DNA of 27,307 bases, from the IMG/VR virus record IMGVR_UViG_3300034110_000285, positions 1 through 27,307 of that record; one strand, 5' to 3'. The notes beneath the pieces were generated by a model. That model worked only from the letters and a program-made list of their open reading frames with translations, did not search any database and was not told where the DNA came from. The stretch comes from a virus (Duplodnaviria > Caudoviricetes). Within the stretch, counting starts at the first letter, position 1. Every line of letters begins with the position of its first letter. Shown piece by piece: positions 1,433 to 27,307 of this stretch. Both the position numbers and the translations under genes were made by a program.

Positions 1433-4400
1433 ATGCTTCCTCCTGAAAATATTCTAGCAGAAGAACTGCTAACCGAGGTGTTAGACATTAACACCTCAAA
1501 ATCTTATGACTTCGTAGAAACAGACCCAAAGGACATTCCTGCCTGGGCGGGTACGCCTATCGTTTATGAAGTAACATTCGAAACTGAAAACAAAAAGCAA
1601 TACGCAGTTCGTGTCTTTAAAAATAACCGGTATGGTGCAAACACACGTTGCATCTGCGTTATGCTCAAGAAACAAATTAGATGGTCGCGTACCCTTGTTA
1701 TAGACCCATCAACATTCAAAGCTGTTATGGTTACATTGCTGAAAGCGTACTCTGCATACAAAGATACCACTGATGGTAAAATGGCATCTGGTATGATGGT
1801 GATCATGCAGAACGGCATTAACGATAGAGCAGGGTTGCTTGTAAAGGCGATCTCTAGATCATTCAAAGCAGAGCCTAAGAAAAAACTGTCGTTCTACGCG
1901 GCCACTGATGAAGGTAAACGAGACAGCACGTGGTTGTTCTTCACTATCAACTCCTCACCATATCCTTTCTTCAAAGGTAAGCAGTTTAAAGCGGAATGGA
2001 CTGTATCACCACTGTTTAAGAAATTGTCTGGCGCCGATTCAGTTATAGCAGCGAAAGAAACACCTGTTATGGCAGTGGGTATAGACCAACAGAAATCCAA
2101 GCCTGATGAGACGGAAGAGAACTACGCCTATGCTGAAATATTGTCAGACAAGGTTAGATACGAGTATCATGGTGCTGTTGTTGAGAAGGGTTCAATATTC
2201 AAGTTCAAAACAGCTTACGTGAAAGTCTTAGAAGATCATGTGATTGCAATAACCTCTGAAATAGTTTCACCTGAAAAGGGCGTCCAAGCAGCTGGTGTTA
2301 GAATCAGAGTGCCTAAAGCAGGTAACGACAATACTAAGATGCTCAGTGCCGCCGAGTACATTCAGAAAAAAGCAGACCTGCTAGAAAAAGGCGAAAAGCC
2401 TAAAACAGCGCAGTCGCCTACACAAAAATCACAACCTACGGCGATTGAGTACATCTACGTTGAACTCATAGGAGATGGTGCAAAACTTAATTTCCCTGGT
2501 TCACCTTTGCCAGTAGGCACCTTACTTAAATTCATGAAAGGTGATAGTAAGGTATTGTCCAATAGCAAGATGACAATCCAGGTAAGAGTCCTTATCACAC
2601 CTGATGGCAAAACAGTTTATGACAGGGCCGTGACAGTACCTATGTCAGGAGATATCACATCTGTTATTCCTATGGAAGTGTATGAGAAGAAAAAAGCAGC
2701 GATTGAATATGGTGAGGTAAGTGGTGAGCCAACACCTGTTACTGTAGCAGAGCCAGTGAAGGTAGAGGTAGAGCCTACATACACGTCGAAGGAATGGAAG
2801 TTCATGTTCAAGAATGGATATGAAATCACAGTGGACAATTTCGTAACATTTGACGATGATTTCAACTACTTCATAACCAAGACGGATGCGATAACAACTG
2901 TTCTAGAGGTACCACTGCCAGTGGGGACTTTTGTTAAGTACAAGTTTAATGGTCAGGCATCTGGCAACAACCAGTACATCATCGTTCATGCCGAAGAAGT
3001 CATTTACCCTAATGGCTCTTATGCAAACAATCTGGATTTGATTGTAGAAGATGACTCGTTTGTAAAACATTCAAATGAAACTGCGTTCAACACGAAAAAA
3101 GATGAGGCTGTTCAGGCGGGTACTCTTAAGAGCCTTAACAACGTGGGGAAGGTTAAACAAGATACACTTGCATCAACTGAGCTAGACGCAGCACCTAAAG
3201 TGATTAAGATGATAACACAATCGGGATCATCATCACTTCCGGCAGGAGCATTAGCAAACGTTATTGAGTTCTTCCCCGCAATCACCTCTCATGCGGTGAT
3301 AAACTATAAGATACCTAACTCAGTAGAAAACTATTTCCTGAACAGTGGTGACCCTCTGATCATAGTGTCACCAACAGACAACTCTAGTAAGTTTGTTGCG
3401 TTAAGCGTTATGAAAGAAGGCATTGGTTATGTCTATGTGAGCGGTAAAGGGTATAAAGATAAGTTAGCACAGGCCAAGGCCAACACCGCTGTGGCAGAAG
3501 TGCCAGACTCACTACCACCTGCGCTTAAGATAACCGATAAGCCTGTGTCTGAGTTTTATAGCGACCGCTTCAAAGATTGGGTGAAAGCAAATAGACCTAA
3601 CCTTACGAGCTCAGTTGAGTTTATGCCTGGAGTGACTATTGACTTGCCTGAGTACGACTTCTTGGCATTAGGTGAAAAACTTAGAACCATTGGTGAGGCA
3701 TTCGGTACTCAAGCTGCCATCACTAGAGACAGAGCAAACGTTCTGTTAGGTCAATTGAGAAACAAGTCAAGTAGCATTGCGGACTTTATAGAGTCCCAAA
3801 TTGAACAAACAGGGTTATACCTCAAGCCAGGATCAAAAGGTGTTGCTGGTGTCAAGGCATATAGCGGAACAGACTATTCTAGAATCAACGACTACATCAG
3901 AAAACCACCTGAAGAAGTGTCCTCATACAACACAGAGACCTTGGATAAGATTAGAAAGATAGATGACGCCTTCAGACTGTATGGCATACGTTTACCTAAA
4001 GATCTTCCAGTATATCGTGGTGCGTCTATATCAGATGCTGATGTTGCGGCTTTGGACAAGGGCGGTGTTCATGTGATGGATTCATATTCTTCTGCTTCAC
4101 TTAAAACGTATACAGCAGAGGATTTCTTCAGAGCGCACCCTGAAGTTGGTGTACTGAGTATCACACAGACTAAAGACAATACTCCAGTCACTATAGACTA
4201 CTCTATTGGCAGTAAACAAGGTAATAAGATATTCTTTACCATTAGAGGACTGGACAGATGTATCTCGTTATACATTGCTCAAGTATCACAATTCTCCCAT
4301 GAGAAAGAACTACTAATCAACAGAGGTACCTCAGTTAAGTGTGAAGTGTCTCCAACGACAGGCGGACTTACAAAACCTGTTTTGGTTCATAAGTCTAAAA

Positions 4401-4600
4401 ACGGGGTAAAATGTTGGGCGGCAAGGGTAACCGTTGCTAACTCACTCACTGAGTCCACAGTTAGTTTCAGATCGCTGTTAGAACAAAGATCACCTGACAT
4501 GAAGGAGCTGTTAGACATGAACGATAAGTATGGATTGATCATGTATAAACTGCAACTCATCTTGGACGACGCGGAAGAAGAAGAGTTAAACAAAGATTAA
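1433..4600 (+). CDS. alt: Alt-like NAD:protein ADP-ribosyltransferase, probably virion-packaged (1055 aa)
   Basis: C-terminal VIP2/C3-type ART motifs: YSGTDYSRINDYIR, VYRG (catalytic Arg), SYSSAS (STS-like), HEKELLINRG (ExE). N-terminal ILAEELLTE resembles gp21 prohead-protease L/I-x-E sites, as in T4 Alt. Confidence 0.82.
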   Translation: MLPPENILAEELLTEVLDINTSKSYDFVETDPKDIPAWAGTPIVYEVTFETENKKQYAVRVFKNNRYGANTRCICVMLKKQIRWSRTLVIDPSTFKAVMVTLLKAYSAYKDTTDGKMASGMMVIMQNGINDRAGLLVKAISRSFKAEPKKKLSFYAATDEGKRDSTWLFFTINSSPYPFFKGKQFKAEWTVSPLFKKLSGADSVIAAKETPVMAVGIDQQKSKPDETEENYAYAEILSDKVRYEYHGAVVEKGSIFKFKTAYVKVLEDHVIAITSEIVSPEKGVQAAGVRIRVPKAGNDNTKMLSAAEYIQKKADLLEKGEKPKTAQSPTQKSQPTAIEYIYVELIGDGAKLNFPGSPLPVGTLLKFMKGDSKVLSNSKMTIQVRVLITPDGKTVYDRAVTVPMSGDITSVIPMEVYEKKKAAIEYGEVSGEPTPVTVAEPVKVEVEPTYTSKEWKFMFKNGYEITVDNFVTFDDDFNYFITKTDAITTVLEVPLPVGTFVKYKFNGQASGNNQYIIVHAEEVIYPNGSYANNLDLIVEDDSFVKHSNETAFNTKKDEAVQAGTLKSLNNVGKVKQDTLASTELDAAPKVIKMITQSGSSSLPAGALANVIEFFPAITSHAVINYKIPNSVENYFLNSGDPLIIVSPTDNSSKFVALSVMKEGIGYVYVSGKGYKDKLAQAKANTAVAEVPDSLPPALKITDKPVSEFYSDRFKDWVKANRPNLTSSVEFMPGVTIDLPEYDFLALGEKLRTIGEAFGTQAAITRDRANVLLGQLRNKSSSIADFIESQIEQTGLYLKPGSKGVAGVKAYSGTDYSRINDYIRKPPEEVSSYNTETLDKIRKIDDAFRLYGIRLPKDLPVYRGASISDADVAALDKGGVHVMDSYSSASLKTYTAEDFFRAHPEVGVLSITQTKDNTPVTIDYSIGSKQGNKIFFTIRGLDRCISLYIAQVSQFSHEKELLINRGTSVKCEVSPTTGGLTKPVLVHKSKNGVKCWAARVTVANSLTESTVSFRSLLEQRSPDMKELLDMNDKYGLIMYKLQLILDDAEEEELNKD

Positions 4601-6632: not shown

Positions 6633-7508
6633 ATGGACTTGCGTTACACAGAAATTTTCTACTCCATTCAGGGCGAAGGCAAGAACACAGGTCGTTTGTG
6701 TACATGGCTCCGCACTTTCAGCTGCACATTAGAATGTATGGGGTTTGGACAGGAAGAGCCAGGCAATCCTGAAACATGGCAACCTCAGTACAGCAACGAA
6801 GAAGTGATTGCTATTAAGACTGTTAAGGACGTACCTACGCCTAAATACGGTTGCGACTCTGCATACAGTTGGTCTAAACAGTTCAGACATGTTGCTCTGA
6901 AAGAAGACACTGCCGTCATTGCAGAAAAAATTAAAGCATTAACTCCGAACAACTCGTTCCAGTCTAAGATAGGGCATGTCTTTACTGGTGGTGAGCCTTT
7001 AATGCACCAACGAGCACTGGTTGAAATCCTTCAGCATTGGTTGGACATGGGCGATATCCCTGCTTGGGTATGCTTCGAGACTAACGGCACTGTAGAATTA
7101 TGCGAAGAGCTGATTGACATTCTACTCACTTATGAGTCCTTTCAAACAGAAGTCTACTTCTCAATCTCTCCTAAGTTGTTACATGTTGCAGGTGAACAAC
7201 CAGAGAAAGCGATTAAGCTAAGCGTGATTAAAGACATTACAGCTAACTTTCCGTATTCTTACCTTAAGTTCGTGCTTAACATGGACACTCGTGCATGGGT
7301 ACAAGCACACGATATAGTCAGACGACTGAATGAAAATACTGCGCTGACAGTGCCATATGATGTTTGGGTAATGCCTGTGGGTGCTACGTTCGAACAACAA
7401 GACGACGGTCAAGCAGGCAAGATTGCAGACATTGCAATCAGCCACGGTTGGAACGTGAGCCCTCGTGTTCATGTTATGTTATGGAAAAATGATCAGATAG
7501 GTAGATAA
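6633..7508 (+). CDS. queE: 7-carboxy-7-deazaguanine synthase QueE (radical SAM)
   Basis: EIFYSIQGEG, LRTFSCTLEC...GCDS, FTGGEPL, FETNGT, SISPKL and SPRVH are the QueE signature motifs. Confidence 0.93.
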   Translation: MDLRYTEIFYSIQGEGKNTGRLCTWLRTFSCTLECMGFGQEEPGNPETWQPQYSNEEVIAIKTVKDVPTPKYGCDSAYSWSKQFRHVALKEDTAVIAEKIKALTPNNSFQSKIGHVFTGGEPLMHQRALVEILQHWLDMGDIPAWVCFETNGTVELCEELIDILLTYESFQTEVYFSISPKLLHVAGEQPEKAIKLSVIKDITANFPYSYLKFVLNMDTRAWVQAHDIVRRLNENTALTVPYDVWVMPVGATFEQQDDGQAGKIADIAISHGWNVSPRVHVMLWKNDQIGR

Positions 7509-7510
7509 CC

Positions 7511-8137
7511 ATGATTGAAGTTCACAGCACTAAAAAATATGTAAACCTTCCTTGCGGACACGCACAGTTTTTTGACAAGAAGGCAAATGGTACTCCAGGT
7601 CATTGCGCAGCTGTTCACGGCTACGACCGATCAGTGGAGATCACGTTCTCTGGCACTGTCGATGAAAATGGATGGATTGTTCCGTTCGGTGGACTGCAGA
7701 AAGTTAAGCAGTTCATTGAATACTACCAAGACCACGTGACGTGCTTGCCTGCTAATGATCCTCGGTTGGAAAAACTTATCCAAGACGGACACACAGCAGT
7801 GGGTGGTGTATTAGGTACACTTCGCGTTCTGCCTTATGGCGTATCGATGGAAATGACATCACTGTTCTTATGGGAACATTTATCTCTTTTCATTACACAT
7901 ATGACTCAAGGGCGTTGCTACATCTCTAAACTTCAAGTGTTCGAGCATGAGCGGAACTCCGGCTTTGTAACAGTGGATCGCAAAACAGCGATGACTCATT
8001 ACGACAACTATAAGAAATCCATTATGGAGACTGATCCACTTGGAGAAGGTTTGTTGACGTTAGAGTGGTATGACTATTCGCCTATCCTGCCATTCGAAGC
8101 ACCACAAGACGCACTCAACCGGCTAAACGAGCAATAA
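7511..8137 (+). CDS. queD: 6-carboxy-tetrahydropterin synthase QueD (T-fold)
   Basis: GHAQ...HCAAVHGY zinc/catalytic motif, NGWIVPFG, QDH, SMEM and VFEHERN; adjacent to queE. Confidence 0.88.
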   Translation: MIEVHSTKKYVNLPCGHAQFFDKKANGTPGHCAAVHGYDRSVEITFSGTVDENGWIVPFGGLQKVKQFIEYYQDHVTCLPANDPRLEKLIQDGHTAVGGVLGTLRVLPYGVSMEMTSLFLWEHLSLFITHMTQGRCYISKLQVFEHERNSGFVTVDRKTAMTHYDNYKKSIMETDPLGEGLLTLEWYDYSPILPFEAPQDALNRLNEQ

Positions 8138-8145
8138 AACACGAT

Positions 8146-8178
8146 AAATAGCACTTTTAAAAAAAGTGCTATTTTTTT
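8146..8178 (+). terminator. Probable intrinsic terminator
   Basis: AAATAGCACTTTT/AAAAGTGCTATTT followed by a T-run. Confidence 0.6.
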
Positions 8179-8284
8179 GAAAAAAGACTTGTACATATTC
8201 TGAAAGATGTTATTATAAATGTGTGGGCAGGAACAACAACTGCAAAACAAAGTGAACACTAACTAAACAATGAAGGATTTTATT

Positions 8285-8731
8285 ATGAACGCAATCAAAA
8301 CTGTAGCAAAAGAAGTTAAAGTAGCAATCGCAGTAGAAGCAGTAAAAACTCCAGGCACTAAAGCAATCGTTTTAGCAACTCAATTTAACGTGAGCGAAAG
8401 CACAGTGCGCCGCGCGATCAAAGAGTTTGAAGCAGAAGCTAAAGCATTGATCGAAGCAGAAGCTAAGGCTCAAGCAGACGCAGCAACAAAACCAGTTAAA
8501 GCAAAACGTGTTAAAACTCCAACTGTACCGACTGGCCCACTGGGTTATAAAGGTCGCAACGGACGTTGGAATATCATCAACAGCGTGATCAGCGAACTGG
8601 GCTACGATGCAGAATTCAGCACAATCTACGTAGAAGTATGCAAACGTTCAGTAGCACAAGGCCTAACTGAACTAAACAAGAACAGCTTCCGTGCAATGTT
8701 CGCATACGCTAAGAAGAACGCTAAAAAATAA
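8285..8731 (+). CDS. Basic HTH DNA-binding protein
   Basis: ATG at 8285 after AAGGA; AIVLATQFNVSESTVRRAI is a typical helix-turn-helix; Ala/Lys-rich linker. Confidence 0.7.
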   Translation: MNAIKTVAKEVKVAIAVEAVKTPGTKAIVLATQFNVSESTVRRAIKEFEAEAKALIEAEAKAQADAATKPVKAKRVKTPTVPTGPLGYKGRNGRWNIINSVISELGYDAEFSTIYVEVCKRSVAQGLTELNKNSFRAMFAYAKKNAKK

Positions 8732-8786
8732 TGAAAGCAACTGAAACGCCCTTAATGGGCGTTTCATCACCATAGGAATAAAGTCG

Positions 8787-10091
8787 TTGAAAAATAGAAT
8801 TGAATATGTCATTTCAGGCACCACCCATACCAAGATAACAATTCCTCTTGCTGACGACCCTACTCTTATAGATGTGGTAAGAAAAGCCATCACAAGAGTT
8901 AACACGTTCTCTGATAACTCTAGTTTTGGCATACTGTATAACGCTATGACAGAGAAAAACCTAGTTGAGCGTATACTTAGATATGAAGAATGCTTCAGCT
9001 CTATACACTCCGACTCAGGCGGGTTACAGGTTATGCAGCAAGGCAGGGTATTGGACGAGTCCTTACTCAGTACGATATTTGCAAACCAGGTGAACGGTTC
9101 ACACGTTGCAATGAGCTTCGATAGCATCCCTATTAAAATTGTTGGTCCAGGCGACCCTAGAACTAACATGGCAATCAAGCGATACATTGCATCTGAAAAC
9201 CTTGAACATGGCATCAAGAGCGGCAAGTATCTCAGAGCCCAGTTGGAATACTTTGCAAACAACCCAACACGTTTCAACTGCAAACCCCTAGTTATCTTAC
9301 AAGGTAACAGCCTACAAGACTATCAGGTATACCACGACGCTATTATGTCACAAGTTCCTGCAGAGTTACATTCAGGTATCGGTGGTTATGCAATTGCAGG
9401 TAGCGCAATAGGTATCGGTGCTCTAGAGGCACTTGATAGCATATACTCATTTGACTGTTTAGAAAAACCAGATGTGGTTGGCAACCGTCTGCACTTCTTA
9501 GGCTATGGTTCAATTTCACGCCTAGCACCGGTTATCATATGCAATAATGCAGGTGTATTGAGTAAAAACCACCTAAGCTACGACTCAACAACACACTCCT
9601 CCAAATACAACATGGGGTCTGTAACAGGGCCTAATCTGAAAGACATGGAGTATGGAAAAATTGCAAACAACCCGAAAGCAAAACGTATTTTCGGTATGGT
9701 GTATGACTGCTTCGCGGACATTCTTGCAGCTAGTGGGTACGCACGTGACGAGTGGGTGAATACAGTTGCATCTGAGTTAGTAGGCTCAGAAAAGTTTCAT
9801 ATTGAAGACACTAAGGCTAAGGTTGCACATCTGTCTGGTGTAGCACTCAGTGCATTATACAGTGCCAAAAATTTCATGAGTGCAGTGGACAGCATCAGTG
9901 CGGACCCACAAAAACTCTACGAATATCCAGGCAACAAGAAAAGCATTGGTGCTATGTTACACTTATTAGAGTGTAAGAGTGGCAAAGAATGGTTCAAAAC
10001 ATATCGCCCGAGGGTTGCACGTTACATAACGTCCGACCGTATTGAAAGGGTAGAAGATAAAGAGGTGAGCTTTGAAGACTTGTTTATTTGA
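8787..10091 (+). CDS. dpdA: TGT-fold guanine transglycosylase (DpdA-like, probably DNA-directed)
   Basis: TGT motifs HSDSGGLQ, SFDSIP, ILQG, GGYAIAG, LHFLG and SYDST; no canonical tRNA-TGT zinc motif seen; lies among que genes. TTG start after AGGA. Confidence 0.75.
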   Translation: MKNRIEYVISGTTHTKITIPLADDPTLIDVVRKAITRVNTFSDNSSFGILYNAMTEKNLVERILRYEECFSSIHSDSGGLQVMQQGRVLDESLLSTIFANQVNGSHVAMSFDSIPIKIVGPGDPRTNMAIKRYIASENLEHGIKSGKYLRAQLEYFANNPTRFNCKPLVILQGNSLQDYQVYHDAIMSQVPAELHSGIGGYAIAGSAIGIGALEALDSIYSFDCLEKPDVVGNRLHFLGYGSISRLAPVIICNNAGVLSKNHLSYDSTTHSSKYNMGSVTGPNLKDMEYGKIANNPKAKRIFGMVYDCFADILAASGYARDEWVNTVASELVGSEKFHIEDTKAKVAHLSGVALSALYSAKNFMSAVDSISADPQKLYEYPGNKKSIGAMLHLLECKSGKEWFKTYRPRVARYITSDRIERVEDKEVSFEDLFI

Positions 10092-10500
10092 TGTTGACGG
10101 TGTCATTGTTGATACAGTGACACCTTTCCTTGAGCAGGGCAGTGACATGAACTACTGGCTCAACCCAAAACTGTACGATAATCTCGACCCTCATCCTGAC
10201 ACATATAAAGCAATGGATATGTTGAAGCATGCTGGATATCATGTGGTCATCTGTAGTACCACGTTCTGTGAACATGTATATAGCAAGCATAAGTTTTTAC
10301 GCTTACATTTCCCACATGTAGACAGTGTGTTCATGCGTAATAAGCACCTATACCCGTGTGATTTGGTTATAGACGACCGAGAAATTGTTATGGACGGCTT
10401 TAAAACTGCTCAGCCTGGTGCTAAACTTATACTGACGTCTTATGGACGTGTTTTATCAGATGTTAAGAAATTTCTGGAGGATAGCAATGTTTGCACCTAA
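10072..10500 (+). CDS. HAD-superfamily phosphatase, 5'(3')-deoxyribonucleotidase-like
   Basis: Motif I FDVDGVIVD, motif II ICST, K..FL..HFP, motif IV K....D LVIDD. Confidence 0.85.
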   Translation: MKTCLFDVDGVIVDTVTPFLEQGSDMNYWLNPKLYDNLDPHPDTYKAMDMLKHAGYHVVICSTTFCEHVYSKHKFLRLHFPHVDSVFMRNKHLYPCDLVIDDREIVMDGFKTAQPGAKLILTSYGRVLSDVKKFLEDSNVCT

Positions 10501-11329
10501 TAACGTACCACACTTCCACCACAGATCAACGGAGTTCATGAACACGTATGAAAATTGTGTGAAGCTGTTCAAGTCGAAGTTTTCAATCCCACAAGAAAGC
10601 ATTGTGTTGTTCGTCACGGGCTCAGCCACGACGGCTTTAGAGTCTGTCCTGTTCAGTATTAATAAAGATGTTGAGGTAGTCACAACGGGTGGGTTCAGTT
10701 CTCGTCTGTTGAAATCTGCCATCGTGTATGGAAAATACTCTTTACAAGATCAAGATTCAGCGACAATGTCTGTTAACTATGAAACAGGCAAGTCTGAAGT
10801 CTATGTAGGTGATCTAGCAACACTTGCTGACTGTACATCTTCATTTCCATACTACACACCTCAAGAAGATGTGTGGGTAACTACGACATCAAAACAACTG
10901 GGTTCAGTGACAGGGTTGTCTGTTATTGTTATCCGTAACCAGGAAGTGATGGATCAGTTGTTTTACGGAGAATGTCAATCATACTTGAGTGTTGCACGTT
11001 ACTACGAATTCAGCAAAAAGAACCAAACACCAAACACACCTAACATTGACGCGTTCGTGGACTTAGAACAAAGACTGCGCCAGTTCGACTTAGATGCATT
11101 CCGCGCTAAGGTAGACTCACGTCGTACTATGGTTGTAGACATGTTGAACTCTAAAGGTGTTGCAGTGATTGGTGAAGGGCCTGTTGTGACTGTGGCTCAA
11201 CGTCTAGGCGTATTGGAAGATGAATTTGGTATGTACAAAAATACCTTAGGCCAGCCTCAGTTGTTTTTATGGTCTGGTACTGATGCGCAATACGAACAAT
11301 TCATTAAACGTGGGAGCGAGTTATTATGA
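10487..11329 (+). CDS. PLP-dependent class V aminotransferase (serine-pyruvate/alanine-glyoxylate/PhnW-like), compact
   Basis: ATG at 10487 after GGAGG; HRSTEF, TGSATTALE, YETG, ADCTSS (PLP Asp), TTSKQLG (PLP Lys) and QTPNTP. Confidence 0.85.
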   Translation: MFAPNNVPHFHHRSTEFMNTYENCVKLFKSKFSIPQESIVLFVTGSATTALESVLFSINKDVEVVTTGGFSSRLLKSAIVYGKYSLQDQDSATMSVNYETGKSEVYVGDLATLADCTSSFPYYTPQEDVWVTTTSKQLGSVTGLSVIVIRNQEVMDQLFYGECQSYLSVARYYEFSKKNQTPNTPNIDAFVDLEQRLRQFDLDAFRAKVDSRRTMVVDMLNSKGVAVIGEGPVVTVAQRLGVLEDEFGMYKNTLGQPQLFLWSGTDAQYEQFIKRGSELL

Positions 11330-11946
11330 AAGGTGTTGTATGCCATCTAAGCGGTGGTTTTGATTCACTAGCATCCACATTGCTAGTAGCAGTCACAGGC
11401 GCACAGTTCTGCACCGTGTTTTATGACATCGGGCAACCGTATGTTTCACAAGAGAGACAGGCGGCTAGAATTGCGTCCGCTCGCCTGACTCAGCTGTTCA
11501 CAGAATACAAAGGGCATTATGAGTATTCATTGCCTCTGATGTTGGCGAACACTGTTAATGCTGATTATGTACCGGTTAGAAATTTGGTACTAGGCGCACA
11601 CTCTTGCAACATGGCAGTATCTTTAGGTTATGACCATATTGCAGTAGGCAACAAAACTCTAGAAGTAAGAGAAGGCGATAGTCACTCATTTTCAGACTGT
11701 TCTGTGCCTTTCTATTCAATGCTCGGCGATGTTGCCACATTTGCGTCTGAAAAGCAGAAACTGACATTCCTCATGCCTCTGATTGTAGACGGGGTGCCTA
11801 TGAGTAAGGCCGATGTTATTGATTACATCAGCTCACATGGCTTTGACGTCAGTAAACTGTGGTCTTGTTATAACAATGAAGAAACTCCTTGCGGTGTATG
11901 TTACCACTGTGAAGAAATTAAGAAAGCAAACCGTTGGACCTTCTAA
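11326..11946 (+). CDS. queC: 7-cyano-7-deazaguanine synthase QueC-like
   Basis: PP-loop LSGGFDS, YVPVRN, FSDC, MSKADV and zinc site WSCY...PCGVCYHC. Confidence 0.88.
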   Translation: MKGVVCHLSGGFDSLASTLLVAVTGAQFCTVFYDIGQPYVSQERQAARIASARLTQLFTEYKGHYEYSLPLMLANTVNADYVPVRNLVLGAHSCNMAVSLGYDHIAVGNKTLEVREGDSHSFSDCSVPFYSMLGDVATFASEKQKLTFLMPLIVDGVPMSKADVIDYISSHGFDVSKLWSCYNNEETPCGVCYHCEEIKKANRWTF

Positions 11947-21209: not shown

Positions 21210-21238
21210 TTGACACAAGTGGCAGAAGACAGTAAAAT
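21210..21238 (+). promoter_or_regulatory. sigma70 promoter
   Basis: TTGACA(21210)-17-TAAAAT(21233). Confidence 0.75.
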
Positions 21239-21275
21239 AACGACATACAGCAAACAATGTGAGAAGGAATACATT

Positions 21276-21669: not shown

Positions 21670-21746
21670 GGCCCTGTAGCTCAATTGGTTAGAGCGTACG
21701 ACTCATAATCGTCAGGTTCCTGGTTCGATCCCAGGTGGGGCCACCA
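21670..21746 (+). tRNA. tRNA with CAU anticodon, probably Ile2 (lysidine-type, reads AUA); elongator Met not excluded
   Basis: Full cloverleaf GGCCCTG...CGA-CTCATAA-TCG...GGTTCGATCC...GGGGCCACCA; acceptor and anticodon stems resemble enterobacterial tRNA-Ile2. Confidence 0.92.
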
Positions 21747-21748
21747 CA

Positions 21749-21825
21749 GCGCTCTTAGCTCAGTTGGATAGAGCATGTGCCTTCTAAGCACAGGGTCACT
21801 GGTTCGAATCCAGTAGGGCGCGCCA
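21749..21825 (+). tRNA. tRNA-Arg (UCU)
   Basis: Cloverleaf with anticodon arm TGTGC-CTTCTAA-GCACA, T loop TTCGAAT and encoded CCA. Confidence 0.95.
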
Positions 21826-21879
21826 TATACTTCTACAATGTATTTCAAGATAGATGCATTGTAGAAGTGTATAATAAAA

Positions 21880-22094
21880 ATGCACTTCATTAACCAACTT
21901 TCGGTTGGAGTTTGTCGTTGACAGCCGGGAAAGACCGGCATCTAACTAAGAGATTAGGTTACAGGCTGCTTAGTTAATGACCTGTAAGATGTGTTGTCCA
22001 GTTGTAGCAACGGACAAAAGAGTCTGAGCAATCGTAGTTTGTTTTATCTACGGCTGTAATTGATATCCTCTCCATAACAAGAGGGGATATTTTT
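21880..22094 (+). ncRNA. Candidate structured non-coding RNA(s)
   Basis: Consecutive hairpins CCAAC/GTTGG, GCCGG-GAAAGA-CCGGC, TTACAGG/CCTGTAA, TTGTCC/GGACAA and CGTAG/CTACG, ending in the terminator-like ATATCCTCT/AGGGGATAT+T; no credible ORF. Confidence 0.5.
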
Positions 22095-22104
22095 AAAATA
22101 GTTG

Positions 22105-22132
22105 TTGACAGCGTGAATAAACACTGTACAAT
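22105..22132 (+). promoter_or_regulatory. sigma70 promoter upstream of the ncRNA array
   Basis: TTGACA(22105)-16-TACAAT(22127). Confidence 0.7.
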
Positions 22133-22161: not shown

Positions 22162-22234
22162 TTAGAAAGGTTCCCATACAGCAAACAAAAACTTGCTTAC
22201 TTTTGGTGTTAGCGCACAAACGGGACCTGTCTAA
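22162..22234 (+). ncRNA. Array unit 1: possible Gln(UUG)-like anticodon stem-loop cargo
   Basis: Stem AGGTTCCC/GGGACCT; cargo GCTTAC-TTTTGGT-GTTAGC (7 nt loop, one mismatch). Confidence 0.65.
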
Positions 22235-22297
22235 AGGACACTTACAGCAACACAAACAAACATTTGACTTTTAATCAAAACCGTTAATTGTGTCCTG
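22235..22297 (+). ncRNA. Array unit 2: tRNA-Lys(UUU) anticodon stem-loop cargo
   Basis: Stem AGGACAC/GTGTCCT; cargo TTTGA-CTTTTAA-TCAAA (22263-22279). Confidence 0.8.
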
Positions 22298-22302
22298 CAC
22301 AT

Positions 22303-22447
22303 TAGAACATTGAAAAGGGCTCTTACAGCAACAAACAAATTGCACTCAGGAGCACGTGGGGCCGGTTCGAATCCGGCACTCCCGAACAGACGGGAGTTAG
22401 TGTATTGGTAGCACACGTAAAGAAAAAGAGCCCTGTTCAATGTTTTA
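22303..22447 (+). ncRNA. Array unit 3: circularly permuted tRNA-like body (YrlA/Y-RNA-like)
   Basis: Stem AGGGCTCTT/AAGAGCCCT; T arm GCCGG-TTCGAAT-CCGGC, closed acceptor ACTCCCG-AACAGA-CGGGAGT, then D arm TAGTGTATTGGTAGCAC. Confidence 0.82.
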
Positions 22448-22454
22448 AGGTGTT

Positions 22455-22582
22455 TTAGAAAGAACTCATACAGCAACCAAAAATACGCCTGCTAAGCGAG
22501 AGGTCGTTGGTTCGAGTCCAACCACTCCACTCCAGGAGTGTAGCTCAGTCGGTTAGAGCGCTTAAAAATGAGTTCTGTCTAA
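22455..22582 (+). ncRNA. Array unit 4: Ser(GCU)-type anticodon loop plus circularly permuted tRNA-like body
   Basis: Stem AGAACTCAT/ATGAGTTCT; CGC-CTGCTAA-GCG, T arm GTTGG-TTCGAGT-CCAAC, CACTCC-ACTCCA-GGAGTG, D arm TAGCTCAGTCGGTTAGAGC. Confidence 0.82.
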
Positions 22583-22696
22583 AGTGCCTTTACAGCAACA
22601 TTAAACCAAACCGAGGGTCGTTGGTTCAAGTCCAACCTAGTCGAAAGGCAAAGTAGCTCAGTTGGGAGAGCATCGGTCCAAAACCATGAGGCACTG
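22583..22696 (+). ncRNA. Array unit 5: circularly permuted tRNA-like body
   Basis: Stem AGTGCCTT/GAGGCACT; ACCGA/TCGGT closes T arm GTTGG-TTCAAGT-CCAAC, a GAAA-capped imperfect acceptor and D arm TAGCTCAGTTGGGAGAGC. Confidence 0.8.
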
Positions 22697-22726
22697 TCCT
22701 AAACCCTAATTAACAGGAGACATCAC

Positions 22727-26702: not shown

Positions 26703-26739
26703 GGATAGATTCAGCAACATGAACTATTCAACTATCCCG
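26703..26739 (+). promoter_or_regulatory. Leader copy of the stem-CAGCAA motif
   Basis: GGATAG-ATTCAGCAA-linker-CTATCC, between the promoter and the RBS of the DUF2828-like gene. Confidence 0.6.
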
Positions 26740-26760: not shown

Positions 26761-27307
26761 ATGTCAAATTTATTTAATGCAGTTAACTCAGGCAACCATC
26801 GTACTCTAAACGGTGCAGCAACACATGGTACCACCAACAGCGCATGTTTAGATTTTTATTCTATCGCAGGGGCGTCTCGTGGTAAAGATATTAGCACTCA
26901 GTTTTCAGCAAGTTACCGCGAAGACCCTTCACTGACACTCAAAATTCTTTTCTGGTTGCGTGATGTTCGTGGTGGTGCAGGTGAGCGTACTCAATTCCGT
27001 AATCTCATCACTCAAGTTGTTACAGACAGCAATGTATTCGCTGTCATGCGTAAAATTGTAGAACTTGGCCGCTGGGATGACTTGCACGTCTTCTTAGAAA
27101 CCAAGTACGATGATCTGATGGTCTCAATCACCGCAGACGCTTTAGTCCAAGGTAATGCCTTAGCAGCAAAATGGACACCTCGTAAAGGCGTTATGTTCAA
27201 TCAGTTGCGTAAAAAGATGGAACTGACTCCAAAAGAGTTGCGTAAACTGTTAGTGAACTTGTCTAACACCGTGGAGCAAAAGATGTCAGCAGGCAACTGG
27301 TCAGAAA
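26761..27307 (+). CDS. DUF2828-like protein (Ro60/TROVE-related), 5' part; runs off the window
   Basis: Absent from the ORF track because it is truncated. GAGGTG RBS; my translation gives RTLNGA, ACLDFY, FWLRDVRGGAGER, GRWDDL, LAAKWTPR and VEQKMSAGNW. Confidence 0.82.
   Translation, partial: MSNLFNAVNSGNHRTLNGAATHGTTNSACLDFYSIAGASRGKDISTQFSASYREDPSLTLKILFWLRDVRGGAGERTQFRNLITQVVTDSNVFAVMRKIVELGRWDDLHVFLETKYDDLMVSITADALVQGNALAAKWTPRKGVMFNQLRKKMELTPKELRKLLVNLSNTVEQKMSAGNWSE

Follow-up and report, generated by a model that had tools for sequence, protein, structure and literature searches.

Units 3, 4 and 5 of a five-unit small-RNA array carried by a T4-like phage are circularly permuted tRNA bodies, in which the T arm is followed by a closed acceptor and then by the D arm. 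The array occupies positions 22167-22697 of the window, the whole 27.3-kb stretch of DNA analysed here (contig completeness 13%). By analogy with known Ro60 systems, the array RNAs are very probably Y-RNA-like partners of a second Ro60 lineage, the DUF2828 proteins. Our leading interpretation, held at a little under even confidence, is that units 3-5 belong to a set of five phage small RNAs that sit on DUF2828 and present tRNA look-alikes as decoys.

Permuted tRNA bodies in units 3-5

The T arm lies ahead of the D arm in all three units (22364-22404, 22509-22547 and 22623-22660), as the preliminary description of this DNA had proposed. This pattern is matched three times in the window, as opposed to no match in 100 dinucleotide shuffles of the window. 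The loops said to close the acceptors, AACAGA, ACTCCA and GAAA, are present in the sequence. The bodies placed at 22354..22677 are real, but that span leaves out the closing handle of 8-9 bp with TACAGCAA; similarly, the quoted anticodon-stem pairings exist, but the registers of units 3 and 4 need correcting.

Unit 3 (22315..22436, plus strand) is closed by a handle of nine pairs, with TACAGCAA at 22324. It contains a T arm (22361-22377), a 7-bp acceptor (22378-22397) closed by AACAGA and a D arm (22400-22414). The upper anticodon stem is formed by 22354-22356 and 22416-22418, and only ACG/CGT of the quoted ACGTG/CACGT are anticodon-stem pairs. A Leu-CAG-like loop plus one extra base is found directly 5' of this stem, at 22341-22354.

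Unit 4 (22460..22578, plus strand; handle of nine pairs, TACAGCAA at 22469) is a complete permuted tRNA, with a T arm (22506-22522), a 6-bp acceptor (22523-22540) closed by ACTCCA and a D arm (22543-22559). An anticodon hairpin, CGC-CTGCTAA-GCG (22486-22498, GCU at 22491-22493), fits tRNA positions 29-41, and pairs 27-43 and 28-42 are supplied from 22561-22562. Since the hairpin covers 29-41 and the two bases following position 26 are the partners of 43 and 42, unit 4 can be read as a whole tRNA opened between positions 28 and 29. The AAGCG/CGCTT pairing proposed earlier is real, but it is out of tRNA register, takes C25 of the D stem and destroys the anticodon hairpin. The alternative folds are energetically equal (-28.9 and -28.4 kcal/mol), which leaves energy undecided between the two registers, and the pairing in relatives supports the split one.

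Unit 5 (22582..22697, plus strand; handle of eight pairs, TACAGCAA at 22591) has a T arm at 22620-22636, an acceptor at 22637-22653, a D arm at 22656-22671 and a 5-bp anticodon stem without a loop (22610-22614/22673-22677). The GAAA loop of its closed acceptor exists, but the stem is weak, with just three of seven pairs in register.

The three bodies have the features expected of a tRNA elbow: U8-A14, a D loop with G18G19, and a T loop of the standard form. Units 4 and 5 have G-C as their 15-48 (Levitt) pair, and unit 3 has U-G. The minimum-energy folds of units 3 and 4 include the T, acceptor and D helices (z -4.78 and -2.90, respectively), and unit 5 folds only weakly (z -1.30). In the thermodynamic ensemble, no anticodon-stem pair of units 3-5 exceeds a probability of 0.07.

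As anticipated, a standard finder misses the bodies: ARAGORN calls none of units 3-5 as written. When excised segments were circularised in silico, all three units did score as tRNAs by ARAGORN, in 272/1640 segments for unit 3, 303/1517 for unit 4 (146 of the 303 as Ser-GCT) and 11/1353 for unit 5, and no tRNA was called in any of the ten circularised shuffles per unit. In a second ARAGORN round, the cuts were set by the tRNA register and the threshold was relaxed. Unit 4 was then called tRNA-Ser(gct), and the four cuts of unit 3 gave Leu(cag) in one, Leu/Pro in two and no tRNA in one. The ARAGORN call of unit 5 as a Gly-acc tRNA is an artefact from joined linker bases. That the bodies are not chargeable as transcribed is supported for units 3-5.

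Array, handle and genomic setting

The handle common to the five units reads AAG-stem-UACAGCAA...stem-CUG, with stems of 7-9 bp, an AAG start and a CUG end in 5/5 units and CUGU in 4/5. The window contains seven copies of TACAGCAA (1.39 expected), five of them within 22177-22598. Another copy (21246-21253) lies directly 3' of a promoter at 21210-21238 that is strong and sigma-70-like; this copy has no closing stem and is probably a chance occurrence.

Unit 1 (22167..22230, plus strand) has a handle with AAG, a 7-bp stem, TACAGCAA at 22177 and a CTGT end, and its cargo is an imperfect anticodon-like hairpin (22195-22213) with the loop TTTTGGT, that is, UUG with G37. Unit 2 (22234..22298, plus strand; TACAGCAA at 22243) carries a bare tRNA-Lys(UUU) anticodon stem-loop, TTTGA-CTTTTAA-TCAAA, at 22263-22279. 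Outer stems extend beyond the handle in units 1, 3 and 4, and could serve as processing sites.

A sigma-70-like promoter, TTGACA-16-TACAAT (22105..22132, plus strand, 11/12 consensus), precedes the array. Only three such sites were found as compared to 3.9 by chance, so this promoter is plausible because of its position alone; judged on that position, it is the likely start of a polycistronic precursor. A sixth, small handle-like hairpin, GGATAG-A-TTCAGCAA...CTATCC (26703..26737, plus strand), is located 51 nt 5' of the DUF2828 start. It ends in CG, unlike the TG of the handles, and might be a DUF2828-binding or autoregulatory site.

The T4-like replication genes in the window encode a family B polymerase, UvsX and a DnaB-like helicase; genes for DsbA and an Alt-like ADP-ribosyltransferase are also present. 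The latter (1433-4600, 1055 aa) has a long uncharacterised N-terminal part. The region 6633-11946 holds genes for a QueE-like radical SAM protein, QueD (PTPS), QueC and an aminotransferase, together with a 434-aa ORF without assigned function (phrog_10773), a gene set which we take to resemble a 7-deazaguanine modification cluster. Upstream of the array, ARAGORN and Rfam identify two ordinary plus-strand tRNA genes, tRNA-Met/Ile(CAT) at 21670..21746 and tRNA-Arg(TCT) at 21749..21825; the anticodon loop of the latter is one base apart from that of unit 4. The segment between tRNA-Arg and the array (21826-22060) is strongly structured (z -5.55), with a 20-bp hairpin and several small hairpins, one of them GCCGGGAAAGACCGGC. 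It has no Rfam match, and in three phage records only matches of 24-28 bases were found. Three wastewater runs (probably DNA, and stored as contigs) contained only short pieces of this phage and tRNAs of other organisms, and none covers the array.

The RNA family and its link to DUF2828

The RNA family is widespread. About 890 viral stretches match the pattern TACAGCAA-N10-40-GGTTCRARTCC, and 120 loci on viral contigs were examined. Across these loci and the window, a strict parser recovered 191 distinct units from 520 occurrences of the motif. Handle pairs are not independent evidence here, because the parser selects for them (null closing rate 123/1437), and related phages are unweighted, which inflates the family counts. 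Across the family the handle ends are weaker than in the array, with AAG in 52/279 and CTGT in 68/279 units.

A D arm lies within the handle in 60 of 87 strict T-arm units. In these 60, acceptor pairs form at 363/420 positions, compared to 169-191 when slid, and 30 units have AT and 23 have GC as the Levitt pair (53/60 together). The preliminary description regarded the bodies as tRNA elbows. An anticodon loop in register is, however, retained by 36 of the 87 T-arm units (null 1.7); with about two in five members, unit 4 included, having this loop, the RNAs are not elbow-only mimics. When 78 parsed units were scored, 24 had the loop in register, 36 were without it and 18 were too short. In the units with an in-register loop, the 3' end supplies pairs 27-43 (21/24) and 28-42 (22/24), and the 5' side supplies pairs 30-40 (22/24) and 31-39 (21/24). 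The split stem is formed by many different base pairs among relatives, i.e. by compensatory changes. The break point varies across the family, falling within the stem, within the loop or after the arm.

Bare anticodon hairpins occur in 40/84 short units (null mean 4.05, maximum 10), and about half of the short units are without one. In an enlarged set of 79 distinct hairpins, G36 is followed by G37 in 8/9 cases (null 1.1), and U36 is the most frequent base 36 (44 of 79). Lys-UUU leads the short class with 7/41 distinct hairpins, in a spectrum of 20 anticodons in 41 short hairpins and 21 in 38 T-arm units. At seven loci (L013, L026, L034, L061, L081, L087 and L091), a shared short unit bears GUU or GCU while the hairpin stays constant. 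Long cargos of 130-230 nt that are not tRNA-like are also found inside handles (L392:1509, L392:2848, L418:2233 and L005:3268).

The DUF2828 gene of the window (26761..27307, plus strand; Pfam PF11443, E 3.5e-12) lies 4.06 kb downstream of the array on the same strand, and is cut by the contig end after 182 aa. Its product is also classified as phrog_850 RNA-binding protein. The gene is present in 38/49 motif-bearing viral contigs and in 3/35 tRNA-bearing controls. The motif contigs were 50 chosen from the 120 loci (the longer ones among the first 62, short and duplicate ones omitted), of which 49 were searched; the controls were 38 of 80 listed tRNA-bearing contigs, selected as being at least 26 kb long, with a duplicate and a giant-virus record omitted, of which 35 were searched. 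The control contigs are shorter on average, which somewhat favours the contrast; among near-complete contigs, DUF2828 is found in 15/17 motif-bearing ones and 1/14 controls. TROVE occurs in one of the 49 motif contigs, a complete one without DUF2828. The unit of this contig (L006 / G005) has TACAGCAA and an atypical closing stem. The motif lies at most 100 nt upstream of 8/13 related DUF2828 genes.

The window fragment is 35% identical to a full-length relative (463 aa), for which an AlphaFold model was obtained (pLDDT 92). The model agrees with the Ro60 architecture, in which HEAT repeats form a ring that is closed by a MIDAS-bearing vWA domain, and a DxSGS motif is seen in the DUF2828 alignment. 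In a Foldseek search with this model, the twelve rows listed at E<=0.001 are all Ro60 or TROVE structures (best E 6e-9, TM 0.62). PDB sequence searches with DUF2828 gave no link to Ro60, which emerged only from the fold search. On the analogy with Ro60 and Y RNA, we consider it very likely that the array RNAs are made and bind DUF2828 through the handle.

DUF2828 is present in 652 cultured-phage records, and protein searches also returned matches in fungi, algae and an oomycete, with no dictyostelid named. Units were parsed at loci of 10/13 cultured DUF2828 phages examined: S13, SUSP1 (four units), R11Z, Aeh1, LP-Mix_6.1, CP39, Izhevsk, phiM12, phi1_175008 and EfV12-phi1. The SUSP1 units lie at about 84.8-85.6 kb of NC_028808, adjacent to the DUF2828 gene of that phage. 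Phage CBB has three clustered pattern matches that the strict parser did not close. Despite their DUF2828 matches, mycobacteriophage Kingsolomon gave no unit with whole-record patterns, and cyanophage B23 gave no confirmed unit at the loci parsed near the gene. In Listeria phage LP-Mix_6.1 (L408:2247-2798), a ROOL-like RNA scoring 87.4 bits (cut-off 99.1) lies near two handle units and DUF2828.

In cellular genomes, about 570 pattern matches stand against about 540 estimated by chance, and this count is no evidence because it is so close to the chance estimate. A strict unit was found at 28/120 cellular loci. Among the cellular loci longer than 2 kb, DUF2828 is nearby in 12/16 with a unit and 7/64 without.

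In full-text literature searches, no paper was found that describes these RNAs or pairs DUF2828 with a Y RNA, and the DUF2828 papers found were unrelated.

Comparison with known RNAs and possible functions

The handle strongly resembles the Class I RNA of Dictyostelium. As defined by Kjellin et al. (2021, PMC7919456), Class I RNAs begin with AAG, form a short stem, contain an 11-nt motif and finish in CUGU, and they are described there as unique to dictyostelids. The array units share the AAG start (5/5), a G-C first pair (5/5), the short terminal stem, a motif ending in UACAGCAA (5/5), the CUG end (5/5; CUGU 4/5) and a variable interior. Within the 11-nt motif, C6, C9, A10 and A11 are found in 5/5 units and T3 in 3/5. 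Units 1 and 2 fit the Class I length of 42-65 nt, whereas units 3-5, with their tRNA modules, are double this length (116-122 nt); the stem also usually starts one base nearer the motif in the array. Against Rfam RF01414, units 1 and 2 score 28.0 and 31.8 bits. As the cut-off of 41.5 bits is failed, Class I membership is rejected, and we regard the likeness as a strong resemblance. With at most 60 candidates scored per contig, RF01414 matches at E<=0.001 occurred in 10/50 motif contigs (including that of the window) and 0/30 controls, none over the cut-off.

The direct Class I binder named by Kjellin et al. (PMC7919456; 10.1101/2020.04.05.026054) is an RRM protein, not a Ro-like one; DDB_G0281243 is an uncharacterised protein from their Class I pull-down. 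Among the outgroup candidates rejected in Table S4 of PMC7919456, Capsaspora cow_can_1 and Arabidopsis ath_can_1 (CM score 40) have a stem and TTACAGCAA. The annotation of the Aeh1 DUF2828 gene notes similarity to an Arabidopsis protein. We take these candidates and this annotation as a lead pointing to eukaryotic members.

The topology of the bodies is that of the YrlA tRNA-like domain, as had been recognised from the start, and YrlA has been identified as a permuted tRNA shape since 2014 (PMC4201824). Rfam RF02553 matches unit 4 with 40.1 and unit 5 with 27.8 bits, spanning only model positions 23-87/85 and below the cut-off of 69 bits, and unit 3 has no match. Both modules run V stem-loop, T arm, closed acceptor and D arm, the conserved tertiary positions of the tRNA-like domain recur in the array bodies, and in both cases several RNAs per locus lie near a Ro-fold gene; YrlA is also reported from 22 phages. 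The hairpin of unit 4 corresponds to the 'V' stem-loop of Chen et al., whose seed alignment contains CGCCTTCTAAGCG in Streptosporangium YrlA (PMC4201824), one base apart from the unit 4 hairpin. In Xanthomonas phage Tenjo, the hairpin in this frame is CGA-CTGTTAA-TCG, and it lies ahead of a TROVE gene. With these counterparts, the cargo can be identified as the known YrlA module. Tenjo (LR743531, L422:2020-2600) has an unannotated array of T-arm and permuted-tRNA RNAs ahead of that gene, and in one of these RNAs, which is built on a different handle, the split Asn-GUU anticodon arm is complete.

On the other hand, the array RNAs use the UACAGCAA handle, which is absent from the Chen supplements searched (PMC4201824), their probable partner is DUF2828 instead of TROVE (PF05731), and sister units bear bare anticodon hairpins. 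The ties of the bodies to the common handle and to the Ro-like DUF2828 gene, which the preliminary description did not draw, set them apart from YrlA. YrlA lies within about 4 kb of a same-strand TROVE Ro60, compared to 4.06 kb to DUF2828 on this 13%-complete contig. The YrlA motif GNCGAAN0-1G is found at no 5' end in the array, and its sole array match is in the unit 5 acceptor hairpin (22640). With scores below 69 bits and no 5' motif, YrlA membership is rejected.

Thermus phage phiLo likewise combines a phage Ro60 ring with phage Y-like RNAs (Yrl1/Yrl2) that act on a host enzyme, and its structures 9kop and 9l5y match the DUF2828 model. It differs in its CGAA motif, in that Yrl1/2 are stem-bulge-stem hairpins and not permuted tRNAs (PMC12135203), and in the Ro60 itself, with about 16% identity to the DUF2828 model. 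Jumbo-phage TROVE proteins with a tRNA-like partner (PMC7824862) and a Ro60-like phage ORF (PMC7765460) have also been mentioned. Thus, the permuted tRNA shape is already known from YrlA, and the literature searched does not describe the handle, the DUF2828 partner, the bare anticodon cargos or the Class I resemblance.

We propose that the array would be transcribed from the promoter at 22105 and that single units would be freed from their long flanking stems. The handle would then likely bind the phage Ro60-like DUF2828 ring, which may protect the RNA ends, and host tRNA enzymes may modify the RNAs. In the least certain step, the exposed tRNA look-alike would occupy host enzymes that attack tRNA, anticodon nucleases above all; the closed acceptor would bar the mimics from translation and leave the elbow and anticodon loop open to the proteins that read them.

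A cargo acting as a decoy for tRNA-attacking defences is an idea that we hold with slightly less than even confidence. We favour it because the smallest cargos are anticodon hairpins with real loop rules, tRNA-Lys leads among them and the acceptor is closed. tRNA-Lys is the target of PrrC, and unmodified tRNA-Lys is a poorer PrrC substrate (PMC13191261), which counts against the decoy insofar as the mimic would need modifications. Several other points speak against it as well. The range of anticodons is wide, and UUU may be favoured by an AT-rich composition; a cleavable decoy merely slows a catalytic nuclease; unit 5 lacks an anticodon loop, as do many relatives (36/60 scorable units), and about half of the short units carry no hairpin; the anticodon-stem pairs have low ensemble probabilities; DUF2828 is 4 kb away from the array; and the sole tested phage Ro-Y RNA pair, that of phiLo, acts on PNPase (PMC12135203).

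This phiLo precedent sustains a rival that we consider possible, though doubtful: DUF2828 would hold the handle, and each cargo would bring in a different host protein (an RNase, a ligase or a tRNA-binding protein), by which host RNA decay is redirected or dampened. In phiLo, Ro60 together with Yrl1/2 attaches to host PNPase and reduces the activity of this enzyme (PMC12135203); in Deinococcus, Y RNA links Rsr to PNPase, and Salmonella YrlA is complexed with both (PMC4201824). The many cargos on one handle, some of them long and not tRNA-like, also suit a modular adaptor. However, PNPase recruitment leaves unexplained why anticodon-loop rules are kept and why bare Lys-UUU hairpins recur.

Improbable, in our judgement, is a gate in which the RNAs occupy the Ro-like ring until an anticodon nuclease cuts the cargo and frees the ring for repair or quality control. 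It would agree with the inhibition of Deinococcus Rsr by bound Y RNA (PMC4201824), with the regulation of the Salmonella rsr-yrl-rtcB operon by damaged tRNAs (PMC7790460) and with the display of nuclease-sensitive loops by the cargos. Yet cutting the cargo would not damage the handle, and a phage RNA ligase is not a regular partner, with the T4 Rnl1 family and RtcB each in 2/17 near-complete motif contigs; host RtcB could act as the ligase.

In red and green algae, permuted tRNA genes carry the 3' tRNA half ahead of the 5' half, like units 3-5, and their products are spliced at bulge-helix-bulge sites into working tRNAs. The array bodies differ in being fixed to a handle and mostly lacking a usable acceptor end. 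It is very improbable that they are permuted tRNA genes whose transcripts would yield working tRNAs after excision, ligation and opening by RNase P. The calls of circularised unit 4 as tRNA-Ser(gct) and of unit 3 as tRNA-Leu(cag) speak for it, as do the CCA exactly at 74-76 in 10/60 relatives (0-3 at other offsets) and the reported RNase P cleavage and CCA gain of M. smegmatis YrlA. Against it, none of units 3-5 combines the functional features (a 7-bp acceptor, CCA at 74-76 and a fitting anticodon), and CCA is in register in no window unit. The CCA which had suggested that unit 4 might still be processed is present in the acceptor loop, but at positions 75-77, one base out of register; together with the A1:A72 mismatch and a Ser anticodon on a short-arm body, this makes a usable tRNA from unit 4 unlikely. 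Unit 3 has no CCA and an extra anticodon-loop base, and unit 5 lacks an anticodon and has a poorly paired acceptor. In the family, the break point is variable and neither the T4 Rnl1 family nor RtcB is a regular companion. Usable tRNA genes are therefore rejected for units 3-5, and it is possible that RNase P cuts a minority into two-piece mimics. Least credible of all are decayed tRNA-gene remnants or repeats without RNA function, which would agree with units 1, 2 and 5 folding no better than shuffles (z -1.2 to -1.5) and are opposed by the constancy of the handle, by the DUF2828 link and by compensatory pairing in phages that are unrelated to each other.

The finding ties a different handle to a large uncharacterised Ro60-fold family that occurs in cultured phages, fungi, algae and oomycetes. 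We put forward, as a rather unlikely synthesis, that the DUF2828 proteins may form a second lineage of Ro60 served by a separate class of Y RNA, a phage display platform whose swappable tRNA parts would soak up tRNA-cleaving immunity and whose handle would survive as the amoebal Class I RNAs. If the cargos are decoys, they would represent an RNA-based counter-defence against tRNA-cleaving immunity. Should homology between the handle and Class I RNA be real, the role of the amoebal RNA becomes testable via a DUF2828 partner and, should this hold true, Class I RNAs would be the Y RNAs of an overlooked Ro-like protein.
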